DNA of 61,049 nt, filler included, from Hausera hauseri (GCA_046269625.1; 11 parts of 11 records of this genome joined end to end with filler, not necessarily neighbours in it), one strand, 5' to 3'. Shown: positions 7,346 through 49,094, numbered from the whole stretch's first letter. The notes: a model not told the origin generated them from the sequence alone. Made by a program: numbers and translations.

Positions 7346-7369
7346 GTCCTTCTAAAACGTTGTCGAACA

Positions 7370-11430: not shown

Positions 11431-11434
11431 CTTT

Positions 11435-14939: not shown

Positions 14940-15078
14940 TACTATTTCCTTTTTGGACCGCTGAAACTGGTTGAAGTGNNNNNNNNNNNNNNNNNNNNNN
15001 NNNNNNNNNNNNNNNNNNNNNNTTAATTAATTAANNNNNNNNNNNNNNNNNNNNNNNNNNNNNNNNNNNNNNNNNNNN

Positions 15079-15360: not shown

Positions 15361-15480
15361 TGTACCCAGAATTTAAATTTCGGTTCACGACTATATCACA
15401 GTTACTTAATGTAAGTGGCGCTGTTCGCCGGTATGTAGTTAATGAACTCTCAAAAGTAAAGTCTAGCGAGGAGCAAACTG

Positions 15481-15497
15481 TCCTTCTAGGGTCGCCA
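15481..15497 (-). promoter_or_regulatory. Primer-binding site TGGCGACCCTAGAAGGA (tRNA-Arg-like)
   Basis: Starts TGG two bases after the LTR end ...ATAACA. Confidence 0.75.
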
Positions 15498-15499
15498 AA

Positions 15500-16200: not shown

Positions 16201-18240
16201 ACACAACATCAAACATTCGGTACATTTCCGGGTCTTGCAATAACTCGATATCCCGATCTAGTGACATCAGAGCTGATGCCCAACTCATTCCGGGTATTGA
16301 GTAAAAGTTGAGTGTCTCCAGCCTATCTTCCGCCAACGCTTTCGCTCGAAACGCCTGGAACACATCGGCAAATAAGTACACGTCCAGTTTAAGATACTGG
16401 AGCATGTAATCCAACATGTTTCTCCAGCCCAGTTCTGCCCAAGATTTTTTTGATCTCCGATATTCATCTTCTGTGATGCCTGCCCATCGCGGCGGTAATT
16501 CCTCTGTTGTCCGGAGTCGCTTACATGATGTTGCAAATTCATATGATAATATTCCTTTGCTGCATGCAATGTGTGGGGAACTACGTTGAGGTTATAGGCA
16601 CATCCGGCAAGGCATTTACCAGCTTCGCCAATGATTCATTGAGAAATTGCAATGAATCAAGAAATCGTACCTAGAACCGGTACTTCAGGTACTTCTCCAT
16701 TGTTGTTGGGATTATGGACAGTTCCCAGTGCGGAAATCCGTTTATTGCCTATTTCAAAATATGGACACAATCATAACCTCAGAAATTATGAAAGATCACC
16801 GGTAGAAATGGCTGCACACGCCTTTTTAAACTGCATGCGTTGCATGCTGCTCCCAGGTATCGACCGGTGAAATGATCATGGTCTAGTATGAACCGTTCCT
16901 GTGCATAAAATGGCAATATTTTGTGGCAGAGGTAACATTCATCGGTGGCAGGTAAAAGCAGTGGTTCATATTCGTCTGTCCATATCAAGTCTTAGTGCTG
17001 TTGATACTGTACCACGGTGCGATTTCCGTTTGTACTATCGTTTCCAACTATTGCGGGAAATCGCGTATACAGTTCCAGTCATGAAAAACTTAGTATTGTA
17101 GTTGTCCGGCGGCTTTTATTGGAACAACCAACACACCGACGGCTATTGGAATGTGATTTTGATCGAATACGTTGTGCTGCGGTAGGATTGCCTCGATATC
17201 GGCATATACCACATACCAGAGTGCCTGTTTTTGACCAATCACTGAATTTCAGTTCCTTTTTGACTGGCATGACGTACATTGCTGTCCCTGATGAATTTTG
17301 TCTGCACAGCGCCACATGTTTTTCCATGTCGTTTTTGACCTGAAACCACGCAGACATGTAGGGCACCATTTACAGTTTATACGCTTTTTGATGAGTTGGC
17401 GGTGATTCATGTTCAGCAGCCTGTCCAAATTGGCTACTGCCATGTAGTGAAATTTATCTGTTTGCTTTAACAGCAACAAATTTACCGAGGGTTTATTCTG
17501 GTTTCGACTGCGATAAATTATATCCACGTGCGGGTTTTTGTATATCTCTTTGTCTGCTGTTGTACCTGAACATGTTGATTGCCAGTGTTGGATTACGCCG
17601 TTCAAAAAGCCGGAATGGTTTTGAGTTTCATCGGCATCCAACATTCGTCGTAGTCTAATTCTGAAAAATACTTACTGTACTGCTTTGGACAATTTGCATG
17701 ATGTTTGGACACTTGATCATATTTCAATATGGCCAGAATGCTGTAAATAAAGCAGTATTCGTCGTTAGTATTTTGTACATTCACTACCGCCGGAGACTGC
17801 TTCAAGAATGCAGGTGTCGGTATGAATGAACGTCCGGACAGGTAAATCATGTCACTCATCTTGGTCAGAATAAAGCCGATAGTGACAATCTTTACAATTC
17901 GCCTACCACTGCCCTTTTCGGTGTAGTTGGCGATTTTTTCGTCAAGCTTTTCGCCGACATTGGCAATAAAATCCTCAGAGTATTGTACGGCTCGATGTGA
18001 CAGGTAACATTGTTTTCTATCACCATGTAGATTTTTAAATTCTGCAAATGCATCATATTGCACTTTGCAGTGGTGTTGTTGGAATTTGGCCACCTCTGAT
18101 TCCAACCGGTGCATCCTTCAATTGCGTTGCTGCTTTCGCCGACATGTCCACCTTTATGTCCACGTACGATCTGTTCAGATCGTACTTGACAGTAATGGGC
18201 GGTTCACGTTCCTGCTGCTGCTGCTGCTTTTTTTGCGTCC
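16201..18240 (-). pseudogene. Second Polinton pPolB copy (N-terminal part), truncated by the LTR insertion
   Basis: Collinear with 12800-14939: NVQNTNDEYCFIYSILA, DHDHFTGRYLGAACNAC, YLKLDVYLFADVF. Confidence 0.92.
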
Positions 18241-18350
18241 ATTAATATTTCCTTTTTGGACCTCTGAAACTGGTTCAAGTGGTCCATGTAGTTGTTGTAG
18301 AATTGTTTATAGTTCACTTGCGTCTCAACTATAGAACTACATAGGCCCGT

Positions 18351-18692
18351 TTACCGTGCACCGTTGTGGTTTTTTTTTGCTATACCATAATACTGCTTCA
18401 TTGCACTATGACAACCATGAACGTTATGCACCTTACAAGTACAGTAACGTGGGTATATGGGGCAATGCACATGCATCATCGTCTTGGACTGCGTGAACGC
18501 ACCGAGATGATGCTTGTGCATCTCATAAAAGTCGGCGTACGGGCACGTGTTTTGAATAAAACTCACGGGACACAGGAACGTGTCCTTGGCCACTGAATAA
18601 TATTTGACCATTTCCTTGCGGCATTGTCCACCCTCATGTGTGCGGGAGACGCAATATATGGGATATTGCGAACATTTCTGAATGATAAACAA
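18351..18692 (-). CDS. Small Cys/His-rich Polinton accessory protein with two C-x2-YP-x-YC-x4-H-x4-C repeats
   Basis: Open ORF upstream of pPolB; internal repeat visible in the translation. Confidence 0.55.
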   Translation of the reverse strand: MFIIQKCSQYPIYCVSRTHEGGQCRKEMVKYYSVAKDTFLCPVSFIQNTCPYADFYEMHKHHLGAFTQSKTMMHVHCPIYPRYCTCKVHNVHGCHSAMKQYYGIAKKNHNGAR

Positions 18693-18857
18693 ATTAAAGT
18701 AAATGTTAAACTAAAAACAAATAAAAATGTATTAATTATAAATAAATAAATTTTACTACAATACAGCATAACTTATTCCCCTTACTGCAGTCTCCGCATT
18801 AGCCTAAATCGGCTATAAACGTTTGTCAACATTACTACCACTACTACTCTAAATCAA

Positions 18858-20072: not shown

Positions 20073-23000
20073 GATTCAAATTGTGGACCTTGGTCCGTGA
20101 TGATGAAACGAGGTGATCCAAACCTGCTAATCCATGTGCGAATGAAAACCCTAGCTGTGGTGTCGGTGTTTGTGCTCCGCAGAGGGATGGCTTTTGGCCA
20201 TCGCGAGGAACGGTCCACCATGGTGAGGATGAATTGATGACCGTTGTTTGGAAGAAAAGGGCCAACCATTTCAAAATGCACGGACTCAAAACGCGATGTG
20301 CAGGGGAAGTGGAATAGTGATGGCTTTAAATGCTTAGCTGTTTTGTATTTTTGGCACGCCACACACTCCTTAACCCATGCTTTCACATCAGAACGCATTG
20401 ATGGCCAAATTACTTATCGATGGAGTAGACGAAAAGTGGCTTTAACACCAGGATGGTATGGTAAATGCACGCTGTGAAATGATTGCTTTTGCATTGATGG
20501 TGTTAGAATTATTACGGAATGGCATGGTTTGGAAGTGTCTAAAGCCACGCCGTCAACGATTGTGCAAGACTTATAAGAATTAAACATGTCCTGAGGTGGC
20601 TGGTTCTGTTTAAGTTGGTCTTGCGTAAAAATGGGAGAAAAGTTAATTGAACTAACCGACCTAGATAAAAAATCAGCAACTAAATTGTTAACCCCATTAA
20701 TGTATTTAATATCGAAGTTAAATGTCGATAAGTATAATATTTGTCGTTCTTGGCGTGTGGAAGGGTGTTTCGTGGCCATGATATTATGTAAGGGCTTGTG
20801 ATCGGTTTGTAGAGTGAAATGACGAGCTACAAGTAGGTGTGAGAAATGCCTTAAAGCGAGAACGATGGCCAATAGTTCTCGATCGAACGTGAAATATCTG
20901 GTTTCAGGTGCTGTTAGCTTGCGAGAGAAAAATTCTAATGGTTGATTTTCTCCCTTTTAGATCTGGTGGAGTACAGCGCCTACAGCAGTGGTTGTCGCGT
21001 CTGTGGTAAGGATGAGTTGTGCATCAGGCTTGGGGAAAGCTAGAATATCGACGGTATTGATTCCTTCGCGTAGCTTGTCAAATTTGTCAACCAATTTAGG
21101 TGTCTACTGGATTGGCTGATGTTTTTTGCTGCCGCTTAGGTGTGCGAATGGTGCTGTCAATTCGGAGCAATAACGTACGTATTTATGTACAAAGTGTAGT
21201 GTGCCAAGGAAGCTGCGCATTTCGGTGGTTGTACGTGGCAACTGGGTGTTTTTAAGAGCTTCGAATCGGTCTGATTGGGGAGAATGACCGTCTGGTGTAA
21301 TAATGTGGCCTAAAAGGTTAATGCACTTTTTGAATAAATGTCATTTGTCGAAATTGATTTGGAAATTATGGTGGTTAAGACGTGGAAATATTGCGCGAAG
21401 GTGTTCTTCGTGTTGTTTGGCCCAAGGTGAAACGACTAGAATATCATCAATATAAGGGTGTGCAAACGGTAAATCTAAAAGAATTGAATCAATGTGCAGC
21501 TGAAAAGTTTGTGCGGCATTCCGCAAACCGAATGGCATAAACAGGTATTCATACAGGCCAAAAGGATTAGTTACAGTAGTTTTTTCTATGTCTTCCGGTG
21601 CTACCGGTATTTGATGGTGTGCTTTAGCTAAATCAATGGTTGAATAGATGGTGGTTGAATTAAGACGATGCAAGATATCCTTGATGAAGGTACGCATTTA
21701 TGATAGTCAAGTTGTTCAGCTGTCGGTAGTCACCGCATGGTCTAAAAGTACCGTCTTTTTTGTACAACGTGTAACGGTGATGACCAAGGAGATTTTGAAC
21801 GGCGTACTATGCCGGAGCGTTCTAGTTCAAGAAATTCGGCTTCTACGGCCTGTCTACGACGAGGTGACAGAAGCCGTACCTTTTGGCATATTGGTCGTTT
21901 ATGCTGTGTAACTATATGGTGTAAAGTACTGCTTGAGGGAGTAAACGTACGGTCTTTTCTAAGTACGCGTGGACATGATGTGTTGACGAATTGCTGTAAA
22001 GTTGTAGGTAACTGTGAGAGATTTGGTAGAAGTGGTAAAATGACTTGATTAGTAGCGAATGCAATTTGTGAGTTGTTAGGTAATGTGCAGTCAAGTGGTA
22101 TGTGGTGTAAGACGGTCGAATTGAAAATGGTGTTGTATGAAGTATTTTGTCGAATAAATTAACGTTGGTGGCAGTACCACAATTATCGACATCGAACCTC
22201 AATCAAATATTAGTATTATTATTTAAAAATTTACAAATTGAGTTATTATTATGGAAATTGGAATTATTTATTGACTTTTTTAAGATTGATCTCCGCGTTC
22301 CTGTCGACTGCGCGGTAGTCGAAATGCTATTGCCATGTCCAGAAATGTCGCCAGTGGTGCCGTTCCTCAAACATCGCTGACTGCAGTCAACCAGTAAATT
22401 ATAGTGTGAGAGAAAGTCGGATCCTAGAATTGCCGTCTGGATGTTAGCGACTGTGAACGTCCAGTGGAAAGGTGAAGGAAAATTTGGTAAAGTGAAAGAC
22501 AATTTAGCCATGCCAGAAATGTGCAGCGGTTGGCCTGAAGCAGTGTATAAGGGCTTAAGTCTGAATGGAGAATTTTGTACAGGAAAGGTTTGTGGTAATA
22601 AAGAAATCGCTGCACCTGTATCAATGAGAAAGTCAACAGATTGCGTTGTAGGAGCAGTGATTGTAGCCTTTAGAGTAAAGACAGCAAAAGAGACGTGTCG
22701 GCGTTCAAAAAGTGAAGTAATGTCTTTGCCAGAGTTTGCCGTGACTTCTGGCGGCGAACTTAGTTTTTTTTGAAAGGGTGAATTAGGACGACTATTAGAA
22801 GGAAAGGCAGAACGTCCGTCGTTCGTGTTTGATTTGAAAGTGCAGCCTGGGATACATTTACGAGCTTGGTTTTTGAACCTTGCATGGTAGATGCAAACAA
22901 CGATGTCCGAAGAAAAACATTTGTTATAAAATTTGCACCCTAGGCAGCACTTCTAAGCATTAGTTTTAAATATGCTGTAATAATAGCAGATCGACGAACG

Positions 23001-24160
23001 CGCAGGCAATGGTGAGCGGTTTCTAGACGTAAAACGAACGCGGTCAGCGGCAAAACCCCCTCTGCGCGACAGAGACAATTCGTTTAATTTATTATTATTA
23101 TTGTTGATTGTTGCATGTAGTGCAATATTTTCAGCACGTAGCTGATTAAGCTGTTGTTCTATGGATGTATTATTGGTTTGAATATCGTTAGCGGCAACTG
23201 CTGCTGAAACAACTAATGGAGAAATTACGTGTAGGACGTCGTGTGTCCTATCAGCTAATTCGGCTAATTTCTCAATCAGCGTGGAGTCCTCCACTACGGT
23301 AATTAGGGCCCGGATTTGGATAAATAACGCATTGAGGAAATAGTGGCGCAGTAGTTCTGGATTATGTTCCTTAGTGACGCCGAGGGTATGTAGATGTGCT
23401 AAGAAGGTACGTAAGAATTCTGATGGTCGTTGGGTGCCTATAACGTTGTCGTGGAAGAAACGTTGTATGACTGTGACCATGGAAGGTTCTGTGATCTTAA
23501 GAACTGTGTTGGAAAGTTGGGAATTTGGGTCACGGAGTTCGAAGATTTCGGTGATGTTGTAAATGCGGGTTTTGATGTTATTAGGCAGTAAGAAAAGAAG
23601 GTTATGTGCCTTAGTTAGAGAGTCGATAATGTTATTTGCCTGCAGCCATAGTTGATGGAATTGCAACGAAGTTTTGCTGGATCCTTGGTTGTTAATAAAG
23701 AAGTCGGTGCAGTTTGGCAAAGGAGAGGAAGAGGTAATGGATGGGAGGTTGCTCGCAGGGGTAGAAATGGATTTTTGAAGCAATATGACAGGTTTTGGTT
23801 TCGTGTTGGTTTTATCCGTGGTGTCTGCGGTTGGCGAAGAGTTTATGCCACCCCGGATATGGAGATTTATGTGGAGATAAGTGTGGCTTCAGAAAGTGAT
23901 AGGGTTCCGGTTAGGGGTATTATAGAACCGTTATGTATTATAGAACCGTTAAGTAAGAAAGAAATAAAGGTACGAAGGGTTGCAATATGTAAATGTGGTG
24001 TAGTGAATGTGTAAATGTGTATTATTGAGGAAAAGAAAAATAGAAAGGGGGAAGTAGTATGCCTGGGAGCGTGGTGTGAGGTCAATGCGAAAGGCGCCGT
24101 CTGACCGACCGGCGCATGGGTGACGGCCGGTCCCCCGCCGAGGCGCGGCGGGCCCCAAAT
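20073..24160 (-). mobile_element. Degenerate CsRn1-like Ty3/Gypsy element: LTR end cap, gag, PR, RT, RH, INT (3' end cut by contig end)
   Basis: Gag 22953-23783; CHCC knuckle CIYHARFKNQARKCIPGC; protease FLIDTGAAISLL (~22620); RT YIDD; RH TDHKPL; INT TDQGPQF. Confidence 0.95.
24075..24160 (-). repeat. GC-rich LTR end cap (...CCTCACA)
   Basis: Homologous to 53502-53630 and followed by the same pyrimidine-rich leader; contains hairpin GACCGGC..GCCGGTC. Confidence 0.75.
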
Positions 24161-24169
24161 TGCAGGGTG

Positions 24170-24960
24170 ACCGAGTTTCCCATCAAAAGTGCGGCCATGT
24201 CTTGAGCGTCTTTAAATCGACCGGACTCAATCATGCATTTGGTATAGAGACAATTAATGTATCGATCCTCTGTGTCCAATGATTGGGCCTCGTCCAAATA
24301 ATTACTGGCCAAATGGCGATTCCCAGCATCGTAATAAATACGACCTTTCAGTGCATAGAAGTCAGAGTTGGTGTGATATAGCCGGTTTTCAACGAGCTGT
24401 AAGGCATCCAAAACTCGACCCGTATGACTATAGTGTTGTGCCAGCAGATAATTAAGAAACATTTCGATCGTCGACGGTTCGATCTCGGCATCGACACCTT
24501 CCAATATCTGATATTCGTAAATGTTACGTGTATGTTTTGTAGAGTGTCCCTAGAATATCGACCTTTTCCGGAACGTTGTAGGGAAATTTCAATTGCACAA
24601 ACAACGCCCAAAGTCTCTTGCGAAGGGAACGTTTAATGTAATCATCAGCATATCGCTGAAACTTTTCACAGCGTAGTTTTTTTAGTGGAATCCACCGAGG
24701 CGTAAGTGCTCTCGGGTACTTTGCAATTAATTCATCAAGTAATTTGATAATCATATCCTCGTCATCGGTTACTTGTTTAGACTCCATAAATTTATAGTAA
24801 TAATACTCATTGTCCGGATTTCTATCGATTAATTCTCGAAAGATTTTCTCGGCGTCAGTATATCGATGGAGCCTTAGATAAAGTTCATCCTTGAATTCTT
24901 GGTAATGAAGTTTATCCACGATGCTCGATTCATTGCAATTCAAAAGGCTTAAAGCTTCCT
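24170..24960 (-). pseudogene. NAA15: NatA auxiliary subunit (NAA15/NAT1-like TPR) internal fragment, intronless
   Basis: IVDKL..E.K.EL.L.L.R..DA....[11 protein letters not shown]; YLLAQHY; KGRIYYDAG; LDEAQSLDTEDRYIN. Confidence 0.85.
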
Positions 24961-26124
24961 CAAAATTTCTGCTGGTTAGTAAATATCTCTTGATTCTACT
25001 CAGGGCTTCGTATGGATTATCGTACGATCGTTCAGTCAAGCCCGATTCTTGCCGTTGACTGTGGATGAGACGATTTTTAACACTAAATGCGTCTTTCAAT
25101 CGTTCAAGAGCGAGAATTAAAATTTTCGTATCGTGTTTGTTCGTCAAAGGTGGAAACGGAATGGGCGAATAACGTCTACTGTTAAGCTAGTGCACAGATT
25201 GTGCGTAAATGGCCACACCTTCTTCGTTAACCAAATATGGACCGTCTTTCAAGTAGTTGTTTTGTCTTTCTTGTTCCAATTTCAAGTTCAGACAAGTAAG
25301 TTGACCCAAGATTTTCTTACACACTGTTTTGTCGACTTGCATTCCTTCGGATTCTCTCACGATTGTAATGAGCAGTTTTTGTCCACCAATCAGTCTTATT
25401 CTTCAAGTATCGTAAAATCATATTCTTGACAAGTGCCGGCAAATTTGGCACTTTCCAGGGAATATTAGCCTTCCAACATCGCCATGTTTCACTTAAATGC
25501 TGCAAAATACTTTTAGCTTTCGTTTGTTTAATTCCCTCCGGCATCATATCGACAATATCGTGCATAATCGAAGCCCTTAACTCCAGATCGTAATGAGACT
25601 GAACTTTCTGCTTCGTAACAGTTTTAGCAACGCTCTTAATGTGCCGATCTTTAAATTGCCTTGACAAAAAATTGCCTAACCATCGCTCAAGCAGAGGTGT
25701 GATTCCTCGCAAAAGGAAAAGACACACACGCCACATCGGGGTCCAAAATCCAACACCGGGACCTTTCGTAACATTACCTGTATTGAATCGATAGTAAATC
25801 AAATGTTTCAGATCTTTACACATTCTAATCTGTCTCATCAATTTATATTTGTATCGGTACATGCCCGTCAATTGACCGATATGAGCAAATACGTATTGTA
25901 GACCATCGGCCAGCTGGAATGCATCAATGTTCCCCAAACGATATTGCACGTGACAATCAACGACCAATTTGGTAAATCGTAGAATTTCTCGCATCAAATG
26001 AAATGCATTTCCAAATCGAGACTTCTTTCTTTCTTTAGTCGTTAACGTTTTAACTGGTTTCAAATTGAAATTGAAATCCAAATGCAAATAATTCAAATTT
26101 TTACGATGAATGAGCAAATTCAAC
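24961..26124 (-). pseudogene. PRPF8: PRP8 spliceosomal protein internal fragment, intronless, with stop/frameshift
   Basis: [88 protein letters not shown]. Confidence 0.97.
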
Positions 26125-26224: not shown

Positions 26225-26410
26225 ATGTCCTACAAGAAACGAGGCACGAGTTACGAATTTCGCAATGTTTGGTGACAATGTCAAGTGAATGTCGGTGAGT
26301 TGAATGCACACAATTTGAACTCGGTCTGACCATAGGAACATGGGGAAAAATTGACGGGAAAATTTCAAACGGTAAAAATTTCCCATTTTTCAAGTCTGCT
26401 GGCTGTGGAT
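26225..26410 (+). repeat. Third copy of the ~608-bp repeat family
   Basis: Aligns with 6495-6685. Confidence 0.85.
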
Positions 26411-26419
26411 GAATACCTC

Positions 26420-27480
26420 CAAGGTTTAAACGAGCAAAATCAAAGGATTCCAATACAAATTTACGAGTCACCTATTGGCACCCAGAAGACGAAATTTGAC
26501 GTGCAAATGCTACTTTATTCCACACTAGCTGAAAAGGAATTGAGCAGAGTGTTGAAAATAGACATAAGTGAAGATAGGTTAAAGAAATTGATTCCAACCT
26601 TGACCAAGCTATCCAGTGAAAACACCACATACAGTACTGTACTCAAGCTCCTAATAAGAGAATACGGCAAACTACTGAAAAATAAACCAAAAGCGGAAAT
26701 AAAAGTCAAAGTATCATCCGAAGGGATGGACGACAAAAAATTTGAGTGCACTACTTATACCATCGTCGCGGATATAAAACAGCGGATAATTGATAAGGAT
26801 AGTAGGAAAGGAGTTAATTACCGACTCTATTTCAGAGGCAGAATATTAGACGACCTAGAATCCTTAGTACACGTGAGAATCATACCTCTTGAAGAAAACT
26901 GAATAATAGCAGTAGTCGTCAGTGAGAAAACCAAAGATGAAGCTGTCAGGAAGGCGCATACAAAGCATTGCGTCGAAAGAATCATGGGAATTCAAGACGC
27001 CGCAATGTATTTCGAATACTTGCAGACTGATGATGATAAAAATTTAGTCCCTCTAAGCGAAACCTTACCACCAGTAAAAGCGAAACGACCGGTCGGAAGG
27101 CCGAGGAAAATAAAAGAAATTGACTACAATGCAGATCTAATTGGGGAATTGAGAAATTATCAGTACCAACCCCAAGTTCAGATAACGAAGAACTAGTTGA
27201 GCTAATGAAAGACCTAATTAGGATAGTCAACTATACCGGACTCCAAGGCGACATGTTATCTAAGAAGGAAAGGCTAATATATAATATAGCCCTGACAATG
27301 ACGACTTCGCGATTTAAATGATCTAAAAGCACCCTTTCTGACGAAACAATAATTGATAGAATTATGTTAGACAGTCCGATGGAAGAACTAAGGAAAGTCT
27401 TGATATACTTAGAGGTAAGATCCAACCCCCCTCCGAGAAAATGAATTTGACAAGATAATTGGGTTAGCTAGAAAAGCTGC
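26420..27480 (+). pseudogene. Polyprotein region upstream of env: ubiquitin-like domain (~26690-26890) and AT-hook (27083-27109)
   Basis: IKVKV..KFEC..IVADIKQRI..YRLYFRGRILDDLESL resembles ubiquitin (IENVKAKI..QRLIFAGKQLEDGRTL); KRPVGRPRK. Confidence 0.6.
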
Positions 27481-27599
27481 GAGAAGGGTGCCTAAAGAAA
27501 TAAAATGGACTAAATTGTTTGAAAAAGAGGAAAAAATAAAAGGGACTAATAAGATGGAGGACATGATACAAAATATCTCTCCCAACAAAAAAAACAAAT

Positions 27600-29450
27600 C
27601 CAAATGGTTAATCAACTTGCTGACGATAATGATGTTAGTAAAGCAGCTAGGAGCAGTCACCGTATATGACTGCGACAAATTTAAGGTGGGTCAGAGATAT
27701 TTCCTAATGGATCTGGTAGTATGCGAAGATGCCAAACCACACAAGTTGGAAACAAGAGAGAAAAATTATTTCCTGTACCAACAACAAGAACTGATATCGT
27801 TAGACGGAATGGAATGTATTCTGAGACGATCGCGTAGCATTTTTCACTGTGGGTTAGTACACGAACATTCCTCAATAATCAAACCAACAACTTCTCTAAT
27901 TCCCATGAACTTAGAACACCAGCACTGCAAACAAGGTAAGGAGACCGGTAGAGTACAATGGGACAGTATGCAATTGGAAATGCAACCAGGAAAGATAATT
28001 AGGGCATACAAGATAGTGACGGAAAGGTTAGACATGCATAACGGACATTGTCACGGAGCGGAATACGGCACGAGAAAAGGATTGGAAGCAAATGTGGTAG
28101 TCGTGGATTTCTACGAATCGGAGATGCGATCACAGAAAGTAATGTTCCATAGCGTCACTAAGTTATACACTGAGAATCAGAAATGTCATTTACAAGACGG
28201 AACCTGTGCTTTTAGAAGTTCTGTTATAATCTGGGAACCTCCTTCTGGAAGAAGTTGTAATTTTATTAAAATTAAGGAACTGAAGTTTAATGAAACTACG
28301 GGAAAGAGATATGTGCATAAATCAGATACCAACTCGAGGGCGCGCGAAGACGTATTAGAACACATTACACCCACTATATTAATCTCGGATCAGCACGGAC
28401 TGAAATTTATTAAAAAAGGATGATCTCTCGTTGTGACGTAGTGATGTTCGCTGCTAACTATGCAGGATGTTCGAATTGAGGACTACCTGAAAAACAGCGA
28501 TGATTACTTTTATTACAAAGGGCAAGTCGGAATAACGGAATTATATCACAAAATGATAATGAATGACTGTAAATTAGATACCGAAATCATGAGGACGAAA
28601 TTGGCTCAGATATATGCCAACCCAGAATTGGCTTCTTCAATAATTCCTATGAGAGAAAGAATTTTCGGTCGGATTACAGACGAAGTATTGCTAACCTATG
28701 AATGCGAAAACAGAGATGTACCTATCAACGTGGAAGAAAAACGTTGCTTTCAGGAACTTCCGGTTATTTATCAAAATACTTCAAGGTTAGCTATACCGTT
28801 GACGAGAGTGCTATTGGACAATGCAACCAAACCAACCATCCTTAAAGATTGTAAGACGAGTTTAGGAGAACCCATATTTAGGCTGAGTGAAACCGACTAT
28901 GTTAGTTTGCCAAATGGAGGTATTACTGCCGCCCCAAATAAATTGACAGGAACAAATCTTGCCAAAGGAATTACGGACGATAAGTTTCAAGACAACTCAT
29001 CCAAAGGCATATATAGGCCAAAGGAAATCGAAGCTTTCAGGCAATTCCTCGCTTTTCCGCGACAGCGGACGCACGAATTAAATCGGGCCATGGCCTCGGT
29101 AGTAGATGACACACGATATCAAGCCAAATGGGAATCATTACTTGGCGTAAACCATTACCAGCGAGTAACCACAGAAATACTCTACAAAATTTAGGGGAGA
29201 TTTTTGACTTTCGGACAAGTAGCATCCGGAATTTTAGCGATATATTTTCTGATACAAATGACTAAAGCATTCATCCAAGCAGTAATTAATGGGTATGATA
29301 TATTTACATTGACGGGATTTTCTTGCAAAATACTGATTGCAATCATAACATTTTTCGGAAAATTCTTAAAGGCATACAAAGAAAGTAGATGGAAATCGGA
29401 CGTAGAACGCCATGTTGGTTATTATAATCGTAAGCGAAAAATGAGACCTA
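27600..29450 (+). pseudogene. env: Chuvirus/herpes gB-like class III fusion glycoprotein (env), disrupted
   Basis: Signal peptide, then VYDC; ECILRRSRSIFHCG; C...ETG; ANPE; GRITDEVLLTYEC..CFQELPV..P.TRVL; GIY; TM region FGQVASG..INGY..TGFSCKILIAI; basic tail. Confidence 0.85.
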
Positions 29451-30053
29451 TATTCGTGCGGAAACGGAAATTTAAAAAACATAATACACAAAAAAAAACA
29501 ATTCAGATGATGACGAGCCTAAGGGAGGAGAGGTACTGTCAGGAATAAACAGACATAGGACGTACTCTGTCATTAAAGCAGCGTTCCTATACTACCCCCT
29601 ACCGCGCCATTCTACGAAGACTGCGACAAACGATCAATGGGTTCATACCAGACGGAGATTTACAGAAAAACAATTAACGTAGAAGACCCTTATGAAGTAA
29701 CGAAACGTTACGGAATACTACGGAAAATGTGCTACCGACAATCCACAGATGGTCCCAAGATGTTGTATTCTCCAAAAGAACCTCGGAATATAGAAACCAG
29801 ATCAACGGTTTGGGACAATCCAAGGTTAAAAACCTTCCAGAATACTGAACTACATACTAACAATCGAGAACTGTTAATTAGTACGCATGAAGCGGAAGAA
29901 TTACACATAGAAAACAACGAATTATATCCAAACGAAGAATTAAGACAACTATCAGAGAATATAGTATCCTCCCAGAAATCCAAATCAATGGACATAAAAT
30001 ATCGGTAATTAAACGCCCAAAACAGGCAACAAACTGTTTCGGAACAGTAATAG

Positions 30054-30380
30054 AAGGAAGATCTTTTGCCAAAATCATTCTTGAAAATTGGGAAGTTTAC
30101 GCACTAATCGATACAGGTTCTGAGATGTCCTACATTAAAAATGATTCAATACCTCAAGCGTTGAGAGGAAAATTATATCCACCATCTACAAAAAATCCAG
30201 GAAGTACAGGAGCTTTTGGCCAAATGTCAAAACTAATGTTTAAATAGAACCCAGAAGTTCAAATAGTTGGACAGTTTTTCCATCACGAATTTGCAGTCAT
30301 GGAGAAATTAACTGACGACGTAGTTCTAGTATTCGATTCATTAAAAAGATTACCAAATATAGCAATCGACTTACAAACAG
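30054..30380 (+). pseudogene. Retropepsin aspartic protease
   Basis: FAKIILENWEVYALIDTGSEMSYI (DTG at 30110) and downstream VVLVFDSL. Confidence 0.8.
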
Positions 30381-30564
30381 TGAAGCTAATAGAAATCAGG
30401 CCGAATAAAGGCGTGAAAAACGCTAAGGATAGAAAATTTGGATAAGTTTGGATACCCGTAGACANNNNNNNNNNNNNNNNNNNNNNNNNNNNNNNNNNNN
30501 NNNNNNNNTTAATTAATTAANNNNNNNNNNNNNNNNNNNNNNNNNNNNNNNNNNNNNNNNNNNN

Positions 30565-31170: not shown

Positions 31171-31694
31171 TCATGATGTGTCGGTATACCTTTGCGTTTC
31201 TGAGGTATGTTTGATTGTATGAACAATTGTAGCTGAATTCGTAATCAAACAGATATATGCCAGTCCCTCCTGCATAACAGCAGCCAAATCTGCTTGATTT
31301 GACGCATCACTACATATATCAATGAGATCCAAAGCAACACTATCCCACATCGTTTTGTACAATGAATATTTCGTATTCGGAATTATACTCAAACTGTGAC
31401 AAGCACCCATTTTGACAAATTCGTTTTCTTCAACATTGTGACCTTTGATGATGATTTGTGAACCATTTCCATCATAATCCGTATTTTCCACTTCAATTGT
31501 CAACATCGTTCGAATTTGTTTAACATTTGCCGATCCCGTTGACGATTCATTTTGAACTTTCCGCAATGTCGATGATCGGATTCTGTCACCATATTCTATT
31601 AAATCATACGTTGTCCATAAATCTTTGCCATTTTCTGTATCAGTGTGACTTTTCCATTTTTATTCTTATCAATATATTTATTAACGAGCTTCAT
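31171..31694 (-). pseudogene. PELO: Pelota/Dom34 N-terminal half, intronless, frameshifted
   Basis: MKLV.K..GKVTL..DLWTTYDLI..GD.IRSSTLRKVQNESSTGS; KGHNVEENEFVKMGA.H; WDSVALD; ADLAAVMQEGLA.ICL. Confidence 0.92.
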
Positions 31695-31889
31695 AGCTTC
31701 TGTTTCACAAATCTTACAAAAGAAATCTCTTTTCAAATATTAATCAGTTTGACTTACGTAGAAAAAAATGACGTTCAACAATCGAAATTTAAAACAAACG
31801 TTATATATATATATATATATATATTTGTAAAACATAAACGTTTTATATATTTGTTTAAACAAACTGTAAATATTCAAGGTCGTCAAATC

Positions 31890-33256
31890 CGGCAATAACG
31901 TTGGCGATATAATTTTCCACATTAACAGGGCAAATGCATAAATGTCGGCCGAAAAGAAATGTTCAAATTTAATCGGGCACAGTTTCTGATGGCTGCCATT
32001 CGGGTTACTTGAAAATGTCATGTCCGGTATTGAATTTACCAAACCGTCCAAGTCCGAACAAAGACAATTGACAAGGATTTCCAGTAAACCGAGATCACCG
32101 ATGCATGCTTCACCCGGTTTGATAATGAGAATATTTTTCGATTTCAAATCGCGATGTGCTATCGACGGTTTCCCTTGCGGTCCGCTGACAATTTCGTTAT
32201 GAAGATGGGACAGACCGGCAGCAATCGAGTATGACAATTTAAGACAATCCTTGACTGATACAAATGCCGTGTGGAGATAATCATAAAGCTAACCGAGTTC
32301 GTGATAATGCATTATGAGCCACAGTTGCGTACAACCGAATTGGGATGCCATATCGGATGCGTAATAGCCCAGTATGTTCGGATGACGTAGTAAAAATATG
32401 TTGTAAATATGCGTTTTCCGTGCCCAACTCGTCTCATCGCGACTAGAAAAGATTTTAACGGCGACCAATTCACTGTAATAAGCGCCTTTCCATACTTCAC
32501 CAAATCGACCTTTCCCAATTGCATTGATTAGTTAAACTTATATGGCGATTGTTCGCTGTACGAGAAACGGTATACCGGAACCGCTGCCACTCGTGTATGA
32601 ATCGCACTGTAGAGTCTGCTGATACGGACTGAAGTGCGTCAATCCGTCTTCGGTCGACGGTAGAATGACGCTAAAATTACCGACGTATCGACTACCGCCA
32701 TTCGATTGCAAACATTTGTCGAAGCACGGTTTAGAAAACGACGATGGGGGATTAGCACGAATTTCCGATAGTGTTGTGTTGTTGATTTCTGTCGTTAATG
32801 TTAGGTTGGAATAAATTTTCAAATATTTCGTCAGGTTATTATGATGTTTGCTTGAGATAATTAGGCGAATAATGACGACAAGCATAACCAAAATGCATAA
32901 CGGCAGAATAATTTTCACAGAGATATTGTAGTAATCAAAATCTGCGGTTAATATAGTCTTATGAACTGATAATTCCTCACTGATGTTAGAACTTACGTTC
33001 AAAAAACAACGTTCGAAAGCATAACATCGAATTGATACATTATATCGATTTGAGCAAAAATCTGACAATCGGATGGACTGATTAAGACAGCCGAATAATA
33101 TTTTGGACGATTGTCTATCAAAGGAGTTGTAGCAACCTTAATTTGAGATACAAAAATTCTCAAAACAAACAGTTGAATTACATAAACATCGATAAACCAT
33201 GATTTATGAAGTTTGAAAAATTCGTCATTCATATACACTGTTTTGCCAAAACTCAA
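31890..33256 (-). pseudogene. TGF-beta/BMP type I receptor (ACVR1/ALK2/Saxophone-like), intronless, disrupted
   Basis: TM helix; GS box TSGSGSGIPFLVQRTIA; GKGRFGEVW; [11 protein letters not shown]; IASDM..TQLWLI.HYHE; GKPSIAHRDLKSKNIL; ADIYAFAL. Confidence 0.9.
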
Positions 33257-33338: not shown

Positions 33339-36300
33339 CGAGCGGAGAATCGGGCCTAACTATGTATCCGATACGACGGCAACGGACGCCCGGCCGTGCC
33401 CGACCAAATGGGCCAAAGAGCATCGGCTGCGATGGGCACCATCTCACCCCCCGTGGCAAAGGGAAAACTATAAAGATCAAAATAGACGGAAAGAAAAATC
33501 GCTAAACGAAAAAGTGTCTATGTCAGCTGGTCTTAGTGTAAAGAAGACGTTGCGTGCCTTCTACTGATTTTTTATGCTACACATGCTAAATGTGACTCTG
33601 CGTGTTTTGCTTGTATACGATGTGTTTGCTTGCAGAGTTTGAAGTTGGGGAAAAATGTCGGATTTTGTTGTGGGTGTTGTGTCGTGCAAAGACGAGTCAG
33701 AATAAGGAGAAGAAGAAGGTGAAGGAAGAAGAGAGGTTGTTGGAGACAGACGGTTAAAGGTATTCAACAGAGTGTTAGAAGACAGATGGCTAAAAAAAGT
33801 GTAGTGGCGGATAAAGGAGTGGAGACAAAAGTGGCGTAGAAATTGGAATTGTATTATGTGAAAGAGTAGAAGTGGAGGATGAAACAGAGGTAGTAGTAGT
33901 AGAGAGAGGAAGAGAGATAGGGATAAGAGTAGAGCGAGAGAAGAAAGTTGCAAGGCGGAGATGAAAGGAGTAAAAGACGATGTATGAGGAGACAGGGAAA
34001 AAAGGAGCGCCAAAAATGAGGAAGGTTTGGAAGGAGAAAGCGAGAGAGAGAGAGAGAGAAAAGACGCGAAGACGGACAAAACGGAAGAGAGCAAGAAGAT
34101 CGAGAAGGCGAAGAAAGTTGTTGGAAGGTGGTATGCAAGAGGTTGTAATGATGAAAGGGGTAGATGGAGAGATTGGTAATGTCGAAATGGTGTTTGGCGA
34201 AGGAAGTCTTGTCAGAGGAGGAAGCAGGTTGTCCCCAAGGTATTACGGGGGTGTTAAAAGGCTTGAAAATGCAGAATCGGATGGGGAAAAGGGGATGAGC
34301 TGTCAGAAAAAATTGAAATAGAAGTCTTGAGAAAAAAAGTAGGGCAAAGTAGGTTAAAGAATTGAACAGAAATAGTGGGTAAATTTTTGGATTGTTGCGC
34401 ATCGTGTAAAGATGTTTGTGAAAAAGTGGTTTCGATGGGAGATGTATCGTCAATGAAGAAAGCCGGCTTAGCGTTGTTGATGTGGATTGTCACTTCTTTG
34501 TCGTCCTTGAGAATGATGATGTTGTAAGAGTGTAAGCGAATTACTTTATAAGGGCTAACATACTGAGGTTGAAAACCACACGGCGTCTGATTATTTAGCC
34601 ATACAAACTTGACAGTATATAAATCGTCGGGTATGTTGGGTTTATTTCCGTGTAACGGTCTACAATATGAGTCTTTGCTGATCTCAATGAAGTGTCTCTG
34701 GGCCGCTTGTATGGTTTCGTTTGTAGGAATATTGTCCAGCTCTGCCAGCTCGAATAATGGTCTGATAGAAGTACCAAATAATGCTTCTTCAGGACAGCAG
34801 CCTGCAGAAGTAGATGGTGTGTTCCGCCAGCCAAGCAGAACGTACGGAAGTAGTGTAATCCAACTGCGATGGGACTCAGCACGGATTTTGAGAGACTTTT
34901 TCATCGTTCGGTGAAAGCGTTCGAGAAGGCCATTCGATTGAGGATGATATTGTGACGTGTGTATGAGAATAATTCACAATCGATTGACAAGAACTTTAAA
35001 CAGGTTAGATTCGAACTGTGGACCTAGGTCCGAAATAATGTGGCTAGGTGATGAAACTTGCTGATTCAAGTGCGGATGTAAACGTCTGCAATTGTTTCTG
35101 TGTTGATGCTCCGAAGCGGGACAGCCTCTGGCCATCTCGAGGAACGGTTCATCATTGTGAAAATGAACTGATGGCCGCTGTTTAAGGGTAGTGGGCCTAC
35201 AAGGTCAATGTGAAGAGATCCAAAAGGGACGTGCAGGGAAAATAATATAGTGGTGGTTTAAGTGCTTAGTATCTTTGTATTTTTGGCATGCCACACACTG
35301 CCTAACCCATGCCTGCACGTCAGAACGCATTGATGGCCATACAACTTGGTGTTGTAAGAGTCGAAACGTGGCCTTGGCACCGGGATGATGCAACGAATGG
35401 ATGTTATTGAATGCTTCTTTCTGAAGAGATTCGGAAAGGATGATTTTAGGATTATTAGGTTTGAAGGTGTCAAAGGCCACACCGACAATGGTTTTGCATG
35501 ATTTAACAGATTTAAAGATGTCAGGAGGTGGCTGGTTTTGTTGAAGTTTGGACTGAGAGAAAATTGGTGTAAAATTAATCGAGCTGCCCGATCGTGAAAA
35601 ATAAATCAACTACCACATTGTCAACTCCGTTTAGGTGCTTAATTTTAAAATTAAATGTGGACAAATACGATATTTGCCTTTCCTTACGTGGAGAAGACGA
35701 TTTCATGGTGAGCATTTTAATTAAGGGCTAGCGGTCCGTTTGTATTGTAAAGGTTTGTGCGGTTAGCAGATGCTTAAAGTGTTTTACGGCAAGGACCATT
35801 GCAAGCAACTCTCTGTCAAAGGTGGAATAACTTTGCTCTTGTGTTGTGAATTTTCGAAAAAAGAATTCTAATGGCTCATGGGATCCATTTTGACTTGATG
35901 GAGGACAGCACCTGCAGCTGTTGTGGATTTCCACGGTTTTTAGATTACCTCTGAAGTGATCGAAAGTGTTGACTAGCTTGCCGGTCCATTGAATAGGCTG
36001 TTTTCTCTTGCCAGAGCTTATGGATGCAAATGGAGCGCTTAGAGTGGAACAGTGTGGAATATACTTATGAATAAAGTGCAACGTTCCGAGGAAAGAACGC
36101 ATCTCTGATGATGTACGTGGTAGATGTATGTTTTTGAGCTGTGAATGTCCGGAGGAGCTAATAACATGTCCTAGGAAGTTGACTTTATGTTGAAAAAAAG
36201 AGCATTTGGAGAAATTAATTTGCAAGTTGTTTTAATGCAAGTGCTGGAAGATCAAACGTAAGTGTTCGGAGTGTTGTTTCGAGGAAGATGATGCAATTAG

Positions 36301-36453
36301 GATACCATCGATATAGGGATAAGCAAAGTCTAAACCTGAGAGAACTGTGTCAATATGCCTTTGAAAGGTCTGAGAAGCGCTACGGAGTCCAAAAGGCATA
36401 AAAAGGTATTCGAAAAGGCCGAAAGGTGTAATGACAGCCGTTTTCGGAATGTC
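33339..36453 (-). mobile_element. CsRn1-like Gypsy element: RT-RH-INT, Ser-rich tail, PPT (33447-33452) and LTR start cap (33339-33446)
   Basis: ORFs 35728-36225, 35205-35609 and 34254-34904 are homologous to the other copies. Confidence 0.93.
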
Positions 36454-37499: not shown

Positions 37500-40400
37500 A
37501 ACTTTAAGGGAAACGTTGTTTTTCTTTAAGCAGATATTAGGTAAATCCACCTTTTCTACTTCATGTGGTCCTTATATGATCTATCCAACTTAGAGGTATT
37601 ACCCTGCTTAATTACTGTTGAGTGTAACATTACCTTAGCCCCTATTTTGATTTTCGGCTGCTTAGTTTTCTTATCATAATACTTCTTATATTTCAACTTA
37701 TAAAATTTCTGATTATACCCAATTATTTTATAAACCACTTGGAGGCGCTCTTGCATTAGTTGTGTGTATTCTTCTACTTCCATCAAATGTGAAGTAGATT
37801 TCACGTTAAAATCTAAGTTGATTGGTAATCTGGCATCCCTTGTATACATCAGGTAGAAAGGTGTTTTAGTAGCCTCATGGACCGACGTCTGATTTACAAA
37901 AACATATGTGTTAATATATTCATCCCAATCGTCCTGCCTCGTATTTACTACTGTTTGTAATTTTCCTTTCAAGTCTTCAACATATCATTCCACCATTCCA
38001 TTGTTCTCCGAATGTCCGGGCGTGGACCGTAATTTTAATATTTTCATGACACCGCATATGGCTTGCATTACAGTTCCGGTTAAATTCGATGCTTGATTAG
38101 TTAAGAGGATTTGTAGGGCTCCATAAATGAACACAATGTTCTACGAATTTCTCAGCGATTGTTTCCGCCTTCATATTGGCCATAGGTAAGGCGACAACCC
38201 AACGAATGAAATAGTCAATAAAGACTAGAATATACCTATTTCTATTCCTTGTTAGCGGTAATGGTCCTGTTATATCAATAGCAGTGAACTCAAATGATGT
38301 CGGGGGATTATTCCATACTTTGGTAGGTGCTTTAAATTTGGATCCCGTGTTCTTTCGGGTGACGCATAGTTTGCAGATATCGCACCATTCCTGCACGTCT
38401 TTTGTCATTGTTTACCAAAAGTATTTTTATTTCAATTTACGCACCGTCTTACTTACTGATTGGTGTCCACCGAGTAATCCGTCATGATATTGTGTTAACA
38501 GAACTGCTCTGTTCTTCTTTGGAATTACTAAAGCTGGCCCGTTTTTATGGATAAAATATAGAAATCCTTTAAAATATAGAAATCCTTTGGGCAGGTGGCG
38601 GGCCAATTCTTTATCAGTCGGTATCGTCTTGTCTTGTATATACTTCCTGATGGTTCTTATTTCAATATCTTCGTTTTGATTGGCCCTCATTTTCTCTACA
38701 GATCCGTCCATGCTCCATACGGCTGCCACTACTGCTTTATCTATTTCTGGTTTATTGGGCATTCTTGACAAATAGTCCGCATTTGCGTTTCGTGATCCAG
38801 CTTTATATTGAAAGTTTAACGTGAAAAGTTGTAGTTCTAAAGCCCATCGTAGCAGTCTACTATTTGGATTTTCATGCTGCTTTAACCATTGGAGCGGTCT
38901 ATGATCTGTTTAAATTAAGAGAGGTTTATTTTCACTAATATATGTCGAAAATACTTCCAAGGCGAATATTACTACTAAGAGTTCCTTTTCATTTACTGCA
39001 TATTTGTTCTGATGTTTGTTGAGTTTTCTCGTGGCATAAGCCACTGGTTGCTCCTTTCCATCCACGCCTTTTTGTGACAAAACTTCCCGACTCCGTAATC
39101 GCTTGCATCGGTTGCCAAGATGAACGGCTTGGTCATATCAGGGTAGATCAATATTGGGGCTGTTAATAGTGTATCCTTCAGGTATTCAAAGCTTTTTGAC
39201 ACTCGTTCATCCATAATACTTTCACTAGGTCTTCCCTCAACAATTCATACAAAGGTTTCGCAATTTTGCTGAAATCCTTTATAAATCTTCGATAATAATT
39301 TGCCAGACCTAAGAACCGTGGCAATTCTCTAACCGTACTTGGTTTCGGAAAGTCTCTGATTCTTCCTCATAGTTTATCTTGGGGTTTTACGCCATGTATA
39401 TTGACTCGATGTCCCAGGAAATCCACTTCCGCTTGAGCCTATTATTTCGAATCTATCGAAGAGATCTTGTAAATCCTTCAAATGTTGTTGAAAGTTTGAC
39501 GATTCTATTATGCCGTCAATATACACCATGGCGTGAGGGGGTCTAAGAGTAGGAGTTCTGACCTTTGGAATGTTGGCGGTACATTCTTTAATCCGAATGG
39601 CATTCTGTTAAATTCCCATAATCCTTCACCGATTGAGAATGCTGTCTTCGGTTTGTCTTCACTTCTATTTGCCAATAGCCTTTCTGTAAATCAATAGTCG
39701 TAAATATAGTTGATCCATGTAATTTATCTAATATTTCGATTCTAGGTAGCGAATATGTATCCGTTTCAGTTATTTCATTCAACACTGTGTAATCTATACA
39801 AAATCTCAGTCCCATCTTTTTGACTATCACTACTGGAGCTGTCCATGGGGAGCAATAGTTTTAATTTCTTTGCATTTCTATTATTTTTTCTGCCTCCTGC
39901 TTTTTATCATAAGCTAATCGATATGGCCTTTTCTTTATTGGTTTATCCTGTCCTTCCTTTAACTTAATGGTATGCTGTATTATGTTCATTGTCCCCAGAT
40001 CGTAATCGTTCTGTGCGAATCGACTGTTATTTTTTTAATAATTGGGCTAGTATCTTCTCTTCTTTACTCAAAACCTCGCATTTCTGTAATTTCTCCCAAT
40101 TAATCTTGGTGGTTTCGTTCTTCTTTATCTCTGTCTCTTTCTTTAATTTTTCAGTCATCATTTTTTCTATTTGGTCTACATCTGAAATTACCGAGTTAAC
40201 TTCTTCCTTTATTATTTCCTCAGTAGCCGTTACTTTTCCCAATCTAGTATCTCTGCGTAATCGTTTCTCTTTGTTGTGTTAAATTCTTAAGTGGACTTTC
40301 CGTTCCTTACTCTGTCTACGTGTGGAGCAACAAGGACTTCATATTTTTCCATAACTTGTGGAAATGGCTCAAAGTGTATCACCTCAATTAGTAATTTACT

Positions 40401-40850
40401 TTCTATCTTTCCGGGCACCACTATCTCGGGACGTGATGGAATGATAAGGTCTTTTATTAGTGAGACCGTTTCTTCATGTTGACCTTCACCAAACGACTTA
40501 AGCTGGCCTGTTTTTACATCTATGTAAACATTCTCTAGTTGGCTTAATACATCGCCTNNNNNNNNNNACATCGCATCCAATCAAGATCTCATTGGGCAAA
40601 TTCTCTGCTACCCTTATGGTGTGCTTTAGGATTTGCTTACTGATTTTAATCTCGGCATTCAAGACCATTTTTATCTCTTCTGTGCCAAACGCTCCAATAT
40701 TTACTAGTGTTGTAGTTGGTTCCCTTAATTTTCTTTTTAGTTCTTTTGGCAGTAAACTCTGCCATTATTGTGGTCGTAGATCCTGTATCTAGTAAAGCCG
40801 TCAACGGATATTCATTCACCTTTATTTCTACCTCTAATCTTATGGGTGGC
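37500..40850 (-). pseudogene. pol: Ty3/Gypsy pol of a second family (PR-RT-RH-INT), disrupted
   Basis: ALLDTGSTTTI; RFCIDY..LN..YSLPRI..DLQKGYWQI; FILATDASDYGVG; HDGLLGGH; CKLC; AIDITGPLP..NRYILVFIDYF. Confidence 0.95.
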
Positions 40851-41189
40851 TGCCGTTCGTTCTTATCCTGAGTCTTATACGTAGGTTTATGCTTGTAAGG
40901 TGTTGAATTTTTGTCGAAACTCCGTTTCATCTGTTGTACTTGATGCATGGGGTAAAATCCTGTATGTACAACGTATCGGGGGGCTGATGGATTCGCCCAT
41001 GATTGCTCATTATACCGCTGTCCATGATATTCATCTACTGTATTTAGTTGAGGTAAATCGGTTACCAATCTTTGCCTGTACTTCTGCTTTCGTGATTTTA
41101 GTGCTAACTGTTTGATTTTAGATATATGGTTACTCTTCTTCCGTTTCATATTTATTTTATCATATGTAATGTCTTTATCGTTTAACGTA

Positions 41190-42248
41190 CTGTATGGCAT
41201 ATCTCTTTCTTTTTTCTGTAATACCTTTCTTTTCCATTGGAGTTCATGGTTTGCCAAGAAACAACTAGCTACTTCAGGTATTAATGCTATCAGAATCTTC
41301 CATGAACAGCCTACTGCTGCACGGATTTCATGTCTTACAAAGCGCAGTGAGTACTGTCCGTAAAGCACTAATAATAAAATACGTCTAGAAAACCGGATGC
41401 TGCTTGGCCGAAGTATAAGAATTTTTCCAACATCTACATGACATTTTTTGTTACTTCAAATAATCTCTGCCCATTAAATTTTCCCATTGTATTGATCCTT
41501 CTCCATCCCACATTACTGTCCTAGTTAATTCCGTTATCACCCGCTGTCTCTGTTGTGGAAACAGCAACATCCGTCGGTAATCTTCTAGATTTTGCTGTGT
41601 ATATTCCCCCTTACGATATTCCCGTTAGTGGTTCGAACCTCTGGTTCCTTTTCAGGTTAATCAAGTTTAAAGTCTCTGGTTTAGATACTGTTTCTCTTTT
41701 TGGCATTCTAATCCGTTTTTTCGTCCAGCTTAAACATAGATGACATATTGATAGTACAGTTGTCCAGTTGGGTTGGCTTAGCTTTGGATTTCAACAATAT
41801 TCTTGTTACCGGCATTACATATCTTGCTTCTGCCTAATAAACTACGGGAAATTCTGACGTACACTTCAGTTGGTCTAATTGATACTTCTATCCTACTGGT
41901 TATCAATACCTCACCCATGACTTCCAATTACTCCGTCACCGAAGGGCATCACTGGTGCTACCACGTCCGGATTCGTTATTACTAAGGCCATTTTCTTATT
42001 ATTTCATAATTCAGTTTACACTCGTTCATTATTATTTCTCTGAATAAACTATTAATCTCTTTTCTTACATAGTTGATCACGAAATCAATCTTTTAATCAA
42101 AATATTGCGTTTATTTTATGCCTTTTTCATCTTCATCTTTGTTCCATGTATTTCTTTTACTGATAAGAAAATACCTTTATAACTAGTTCTAGACATTTCT
42201 TTATTACATTTTGTTATCATTCCGGTGGCTTTAAATCGCATCATTTCC
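41190..42248 (-). pseudogene. env: Second gB/chuvirus-like glycoprotein (C-terminal half), upstream of protease
   Basis: Manual translation: IIMNECKL, TNPDVVAPVMP, MGEVL, CTSEFPVVY, MPVTRILL..KPTQLDNC, GGIY, YRRMLLFPQQR, QWENLMG, FGQAASGFL, GCSWKILIALI; collinear with 28460-29400. Confidence 0.85.
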
Positions 42249-47657: not shown

Positions 47658-47708
47658 TAAACAAACTGCGCCATCACTATCATCGTCATCATCATCGTCA
47701 TCGAGATC

Positions 47709-49082: not shown

Positions 49083-49094
49083 ATTGATAAACAA

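Follow-up and report, generated by a model that had tools for sequence, protein, structure and literature searches.

Copy A, located on a 4.2-kb contig (contig A, positions 26225-30464, plus strand) of the studied window, is very probably a decayed and cut-off copy of a multi-copy Ty3/gypsy element of the Burro/GAG-ENV-POL kind, in which a gB-type env precedes the protease and whose intact form likely encodes one Gag-Env-Pol polyprotein. The window is the whole analysed stretch of 61,049 nucleotides, composed of 11 unrelated contigs joined by linkers of N and TTAATTAATTAA. The Ty3/gypsy assignment is based on the order of pol domains in a second copy (copy B) and in related proteins rather than on an RT tree. 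Copy A itself is unable to make the protein. The env-before-pol order as such is already known from planarian Burro and from GAG-ENV-POL errantiviruses, according to the available parts of PMC6431247 and PMC13524379.

Genomic context of the copies

Copy B sits on a separate contig (contig B, 36554-42248, minus strand, 5.7 kb) and represents a separate family. Contig A starts with a piece of a tandem repeat that lies outside the element (26225..26409, plus strand) and is 85% identical over 177 bp to 6509-6685. The repeat unit of about 606 bp recurs at 5878-6483 and 6484-6862 with the spacing of 605-608 bp. Copy A abuts this piece directly: the alignment to the unit stops at about 26410, and the coding frame of the element begins there. 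Hence the junction cuts copy A at this point, and its 5' end, with the LTR, capsid and zinc knuckle, is missing. LTRs or other repeat pairs were not found inside contig A or contig B, both of which are cut off, and no target-site duplication was found on contig A.

Several other sequences of the window were noted. The tandem unit (5878-6862) adjoins a stretch of Polinton-like genes and is covered very deeply in run X1 (one public run, used as contigs only, with 0.40 of the words; possibly the source sample). Decayed Polinton/adintovirus-like stretches at 6809-8919, 11000-18700 and 47200-50200 contain frames resembling polymerase and capsid genes by eye and are repeated at 77-89% identity. Four related gypsy-type copies are located at 1112-4310, 20073-23888, 34254-36453 and 42349-45291; they have no glycoprotein match to copy A and belong to a lineage other than that of copy B. 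The region 24082-26124 (minus strand) consists of two intron-free, broken pieces of host-like genes, which we take to be Prp8 and NAA15, fused together and adjoining the start of a gypsy element. Similarly, 31171-33137 (minus strand) contains an intron-free, broken ACVR1-like receptor followed by another, presumably pelota-like, piece, with a gypsy integrase adjoining. Among the matches listed, protein P0003 is much closer to the ACVR1-like fragment than any named protein. Its best named matches are molluscs (55-58% over the kinase) and a sturgeon record marked as contamination (47%), and flatworms are absent from the 120 entries listed out of 2909.

Glycoprotein of copy A

The env frame of copy A (27419-29545) comprises 709 residues if the stops at 28421, 28439, 28442 and 29192 are read as X. 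It matches Pfam family PF24664 (Monjiviricetes fusion glycoprotein) with E-value 7.9e-50 and 170 bits given the cut-off of 27, and each of the three stop-free pieces alone exceeds this cut-off. Hydropathy analysis reveals a signal-like stretch at residues 63-79 (27605..27655, plus strand), with a predicted cut before VTVYDC; the same layout is seen in 13 of 14 relatives scanned. It is followed by the gB/class III fusion ectodomain (27656..29203, plus strand), which contains the four in-frame stops and conserved cysteines. The frame has 16 cysteines, two hydrophobic stretches near residues 597-650 and a basic tail. Ten relatives share 14 invariant Cys columns, and 13 of these are retained in copy A. 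The nearly full-length gB/chuvirus-like glycoprotein with a Cys-rich ectodomain, which had been predicted originally, is thus confirmed. At the sequence level, the PF24664 match and the conserved cysteines make it a gB-type env as in GAG-ENV-POL errantiviruses.

The two hydrophobic stretches (29207..29368, plus strand; Kyte-Doolittle (KD) peaks 1.81 and 2.02) had been interpreted as a TM hairpin. This has to be revised: the 14 relatives checked all show strong hydrophobicity in the first stretch, but just four of them in the second, so one membrane span seems likelier, the second helix likely lying on the membrane. A single span is also favored because Pol must be cytosolic.

The claim that the signal peptide is internal to a longer frame stands for the family but could not be derived from copy A alone. 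Env could start independently from Met 46 or Met 49, so the longer frame of copy A is no proof of an internal signal peptide; the proof is supplied by the relatives, 13 of 14 of which have a hydrophobic stretch before (Y/F)DC. Given this conservation, release from a polyprotein by signal peptidase, as had been suggested, would be the best reading.

Single-sequence structure models were of low confidence (pLDDT 33 for env and 38 for the leader upstream of it). Word-based homolog searches with the env of copy A produced no match, whereas the full HMMER scan did yield relatives. Neither viral contigs nor PDB sequences matched it.

Leader upstream of env

The leader (26411..27604, plus strand) consists of abutting open frames with a stop at 26900 and frame breaks near 27190 and 27420, and is likely the C-terminal part of the Gag-accessory region of the polyprotein. 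Its depth in run X1 is similar to that of the rest of the element. A weak candidate for a ubiquitin/SUMO-like domain (Ubl) was seen at 26696..26962 (plus strand), with Pfam Rad60-SLD_2 and ubiquitin matches both under the cut-off (E-values 0.0016 and 0.0028, respectively). The Atlas match of the leader to the PF11976/PF00240 clusters scores 0.83, that is, below 0.9, and serves as a lead only. The profile built from leaders of two relatives aligns at the same positions, with 11 of 1000 shuffled sequences scoring as high; for the profile of the Ubl domain alone this number is 77 of 1000. Further downstream lies an AT-hook motif GRPRK (27083..27115, plus strand; Pfam AT_hook E-value 0.11), which 4 of 14 relatives also have upstream of env. 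Besides these two features, the leader contains helical stretches.

No capsid or CCHC knuckle was found in the 1.2 kb before env of copy A, the 5' end being cut at 26410. The BCL2-like domain was not detected in the leader (716 and 812 of 1000 shuffles score as high); a helical stretch of fitting length is present where this domain is expected, and the resemblance is by eye rather than by score. The Atlas search with a 43-aa helical piece gave no match. MATH, BIR and ankyrin domains were not detected in the window copies, that is, within contigs of 4.2 and 5.7 kb.

Linker and protease of copy A

The basic cytoplasmic tail and linker occupy 29369..30040 (plus strand), the frame being interrupted twice, behind the stop at 29546 and ahead of the protease. 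The retropepsin (30068..30352, plus strand) has one stop at 30245. Its LIDTGS motif is located at 30104-30121, the catalytic Asp being 562 bp past the env stop, in accordance with the distance of about 600 bp noted originally. The Pfam RVP match has E-value 0.005, under the cut-off, and the profile of proteases from nine relatives yields 25.9 bits and E-value 5e-10. The proteases of copies A and B are 30% identical over 63 aa (E-value 4e-6); there is one protease in each copy. The copy A protease best matches the protease nearest to RT in P0126 and P0273.

There is no RT on contig A. In copy B the RT core begins about 980 bp past the catalytic Asp, and contig A ends at 30464, 354 bp past the Asp. 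Given the spacing of copy B, the contig terminates about 620 bp short of the RT start, and the absence of RT is therefore expected. The post-protease stretch of copy A could not be aligned to copy B.

The env tail, linker and protease of copy A lie in different frames; hence env-protease continuity in family A is inferred from copy B and the relatives. The same element with the same order might instead start env of family A from its own codon or express pol via programmed frameshift or readthrough, so that the frame breaks would be functional. Indeed, Met 46 or 49 would produce an ordinary signal peptide of 31-34 aa, env stops at 29546, the frames of linker and protease overlap, and slippery-type A/T-rich heptamers exist in copy A. 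However, such heptamers are common along the whole of this A-rich DNA (23 matches), and stops also occur inside the ectodomain and the protease, so that copy A is decayed anyway. Moreover, the tail reads into the protease in one frame in copy B, and no break interrupts the frame in 11 of the 16 best relatives. We thus consider a separate env start or functional frame breaks quite improbable and retain the reading with one continuous polyprotein.

A PTAP motif (29598) in copy A, out of frame with env, and a PSAP motif (40990) in copy B are both placed between the anchor and the protease. P(T/S)AP binds TSG101/ESCRT-I. There are three P(T/S)AP motifs in six frames of the whole window, and simulated linkers contain one in 15 of 3000 cases for copy A and in 9 of 3000 for copy B. 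Tails of this glycoprotein family carry the motif in 20 of 130 cases; P0129 is the sole polyprotein relative with the motif at this place. The literature search on P(T/S)AP in gypsy env tails returned matches that concern retroviruses. The idea that the Env tail substitutes for a missing Gag was dropped, as the relatives have Gag before env and the motif is ordinary in such tails.

Copy B and comparison of the copies

Copy B covers the C-terminal half of env, the anchor, basic tail, PSAP and protease with LLDTGS (40568..42248, minus strand; tblastn to copy A, E-value 2.8e-16). Its stop-free frame 41455-40649 (269 codons) spans the second hydrophobic helix, the tail, PSAP and the start of the protease. 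The much decayed pol (37570..40557, minus strand) contains RT, RNase H and integrase in the Ty3/gypsy order, with Pfam E-values of 9e-4 for RVT_1 (under the cut-off), 7e-24 for RT_RNaseH and 8e-17 for Integrase_H2C2. Overall, the order is env, protease, RT, RNase H, integrase. The PR-RT-RH-IN order was observed in copy B and relatives P0123, P0126, P0136, P0138 and P0273; copy A shows the protease only. The linker between the protease and RT of copy B (40553-40299) is weakly similar to that of P0126 (31%, E-value 0.001), and Pfam dUTPase has no match in it; Burro carries a dUTPase-like domain at this place.

Following the integrase of copy B, the region 37460-36554 (minus strand) is nearly open over about 300 codons and contains 8 Cys and one short hydrophobic segment. 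This frame matches neither Pfam nor the tails that follow the integrase in four relatives; those tails have hydrophobic stretches of their own and match each other weakly. The frame possibly encodes a second surface protein.

Codon-position identity was used in place of dN/dS, since copies A and B are too diverged for the latter. Over 255 aligned codons, which are seven blocks chosen as alignment matches, 95 (37%) encode the same residue, and the base identity equals 55, 65 and 41% at codon positions 1, 2 and 3, respectively, with the background of 28%. At the nucleotide level, blastn finds a 157-bp patch of 62% identity (E-value 1e-5), a 280-bp patch of 56% identity (E-value 0.001) and otherwise weaker short ones. 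Hence the copies are alike mainly at the protein level, as had been noted before. The codon pattern points to an old divergence with selection acting on the protein.

Relatives and phylogeny

The HMMER search against 1.84 billion proteins yielded 461 relatives at E-value 0.001, including 16 with E-values up to 1e-30; the Pfam scan took in 21 of 150 listed relatives. The best 16 are set apart from stand-alone glycoproteins of about 650 aa. In eleven of them env continues in frame into a protease, and the remaining five stop short of the membrane segment or soon past it. Five of the 16 reach RT, and four of those, integrase too. The conserved architecture, proposed originally from the two copies, is well borne out by these proteins. 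CCHC knuckles precede env in frame in 6 of 14 relatives examined, and other Gag signs before env are Retrotrans_gag in P0132 (E-value 2e-4) and an Arc-like capsid in P0139 (E-value 0.007).

In four relatives (P0124, P0125, P0135 and P0139) a BCL2-like domain is located directly before the env signal peptide. It was identified in P0125 with Pfam E-value 9.6e-4 (0.01 against Bcl-xL), in P0139 with E-value 0.055, and in P0135 by a profile with E-value 6e-4; the domain of P0124 was recognised by eye and is itself a part of the profile. These domains presumably carry BH1- and BH2-like motifs. The Ubl domain was also seen among the relatives, and P0273 has an ankyrin domain.

We built the tree of the C-terminal half of env for 60 of 121 eligible rows: 13 rows that we labelled as polyprotein-type, 45 best others, and copies A and B. 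The tree search was a quick one, with no bootstrap. All 13 polyprotein-type rows form a clade with copies A and B, apart from the 45 others (SH-aLRT 99); within this clade A and B are weak sisters (SH-aLRT 82), both on long branches. Since both copies fall within one clade, the env-before-protease order appears to be inherited in it rather than gained independently by A and B, and env-before-pol would be an old design. The original prediction called copy A independent: this holds in that the two copies are separate families at separate loci, but not for their origin, as they share one clade with the polyproteins. For the pol of all five intact relatives tested, contig B is the best match in the window, with 491-615 summed bits versus at most 364 for the four other gypsy-type contigs.

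The best relative, P0123, is an animal-type gag-env-pol polyprotein whose NCBI label reads hypothetical protein and assigns it to a Flavobacteriaceae MAG; we suppose that it is probably a mis-binned animal contig.

Some polyproteins (P0273, P0127, P0124, P0126, P0128, P0131 and P0132) have 2 to 7 retropepsin domains with DTG, some of them after the integrase. Among the 11 top relatives with a protease, six contain two to four protease domains with DTG in each, and P0273 (4,844 aa) has seven, with mutual identity of 20-35%. A limited literature search found no report of duplicated proteases in LTR retrotransposons, and the available part of the Burro description (PMC6431247) does not mention multiple proteases. 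The protease arrays merit separate attention.

Copy number and linkage

Run X1 contains 11,954 contigs matching A and 6,436 matching B at likeness of at least 85%, which cover 30 of 30 bins in each copy; transitions dominate among their differences. In copy A, X1 contigs bridge 29531 to 29612/29682 (tail to linker) and 29880 to 30026 (linker to protease), and one contig links 27036-27366 (the AT-hook region) to 27452-27569 (before the signal peptide). None spans the whole of copy A. Because all bins are covered and contigs joining the parts exist, A and B are multi-copy families and not one-off joins.

These data bear on the possibility that the glycoprotein is an endogenised chu- or nyamivirus gene and that the protease next to it came with a retrotransposon inserted separately. 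In favor of this, the family PF24664 is viral, a tandem-repeat junction is present at 26410, and Jingchuvirales glycoprotein EVEs often adjoin fragmentary LTR elements, according to the available part of PMC10084718. However, copy B has the same order together with pol, env groups with polyproteins and not with stand-alone glycoproteins, and X1 contigs cover all 30 bins and join the tail, linker and protease. Besides, P(T/S)AP occupies the same place in both copies, at the chance frequencies given above, and there is no repeat pair within contig A. Two separate insertions are therefore highly unlikely.

Nor is it easy to regard copy A as an env domesticated by the host as a syncytin-like fusogen, or as a non-autonomous derivative without RT. 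The nearly full-length ectodomain, with 13 of 14 invariant cysteines kept, would speak for this reading; four in-frame stops in env, thousands of divergent contigs in run X1 and the best match of the protease to RT-proximal ones speak against it. Both variants are hardly credible, and a decayed copy of a Gag-Env-Pol element is clearly preferable.

Proposed mechanism

A single polyprotein comprising Gag, Env and Pol would be the product of the intact form. Its Gag part and accessory leader would remain in the cytosol, whereas the internal signal sequence would enter the ER, with signal peptidase cutting upstream of (Y/F)DC. In the lumen the class III ectodomain would then fold, and one anchor helix would bring the chain back to the cytosol, so that the tail, protease, RT, RNase H and integrase would stay tethered to the membrane until freed by the protease. 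Through the P(T/S)AP motif, ESCRT-I might be drawn in for budding, and the resulting enveloped particles would move from cell to cell. Such elements raise the question of how a single chain accommodates cytosolic Gag, a lumenal fusogen and cytosolic Pol, and whether infectious particles arise from it.

As a tentative and rather doubtful extension, judged from sequences, the two families might constitute a compact Burro-like branch present at high copy number in a non-planarian host and forming enveloped particles that bud via PTAP of the Env tail, within a wider clade having arrays of up to seven active retropepsins. In any case, two further multi-copy families are added to a clade known mainly from planarians.

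Comparison with known systems

Nematode NERVs (Sacco et al. 2022) reportedly have a continuous gag-env-pro-pol ORF. As cited in the available part of PMC13524379, they resemble the studied elements in having Env before pol in a metavirus, whereas the nematode ectodomain rows of supplement 2 of that paper are unlike the env of copy A by eye. Anakin, a BEL/Pao element with a chuvirus glycoprotein (PMC12440569, PMC10084718, both in the parts available), shares the glycoprotein superfamily PF24664 and belongs to another retroelement family; the Anakin-style DUF5641-env protein P0153 falls outside the A/B clade. Anakin, where the glycoprotein follows pol, was rejected as a candidate, since env of copy A precedes the protease and groups apart from DUF5641-env. 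Troyka, described in the same part of PMC12440569 as having no env, is not relevant.

Burro/GYPSM1 are giant Ty3/gypsy elements of planarians, exceeding 30 kb with LTRs, and the order given in the available part of PMC6431247 is Gag-CCHC-Ubi2/SUMO-BCL2-Env in frame-PR-RT-RH-IN; the BCL2-like domain before env was already noted there. BURRO1 is transcribed on PIWI loss (PMC8532177), and Burro is also treated in PMC13238120. The studied elements resemble Burro/GYPSM1, as described in the excerpted PMC6431247, in the Env akin to mononegavirus fusion proteins ahead of the protease (between gag and protease in Burro), in PR-RT-RH-IN (copy B), in high copy number and possibly in the Ubl/SUMO-like domain before env (weak in copy A). 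Their relatives share with Burro CCHC knuckles and BCL2-like and ankyrin domains. As to the in-frame Env of the Burro type, the env tail and protease are continuous in copy B and in 11 of the 16 best relatives, and the frame is broken in copy A. In contrast to Burro as excerpted, no BCL2-like, MATH, BIR or ankyrin domains were detected in the window copies, and their env-protease linker is short (about 165-250 aa). The likeness to planarian elements is architectural and by eye rather than a tool-based comparison to the Burro sequence. Because no BCL2-like domain could be detected in copy A, and the size and LTRs lie beyond the contigs, we classify the element as a Burro-like GAG-ENV-POL Ty3/gypsy and not as Burro itself.

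The gB-type GAG-ENV-POL elements have been reported in nematodes, bryozoans and flatworms and are non-monophyletic, according to the available part of PMC13524379. The ENV-POL matches listed there are mostly from free-living flatworms, e.g. Schmidtea with 830 pol and 253 env matches, and genomes of parasitic flatworms on one supplement page have 0-3 pol and 0-1 env matches. The C1a-like env would suit a flatworm, though it is no proof of one; were the host to belong to the parasitic flatworms, the group would have a wider range. The Platyhelminthes C1a GAG-ENV-POL errantiviruses of the excerpted PMC13524379 are intact, in contrast to the decayed window copies; the ENV-POL order and the gB-type ectodomain are common to both. 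Cys spacing and motifs of domains I-II of copy A, compared by eye and unscored, fit six Schmidtea C1a ectodomains (PMC13524379, one page of supplement 2), which by eye are far closer to copy A than the nematode, orthomyxovirus and rhabdovirus rows of the same page.
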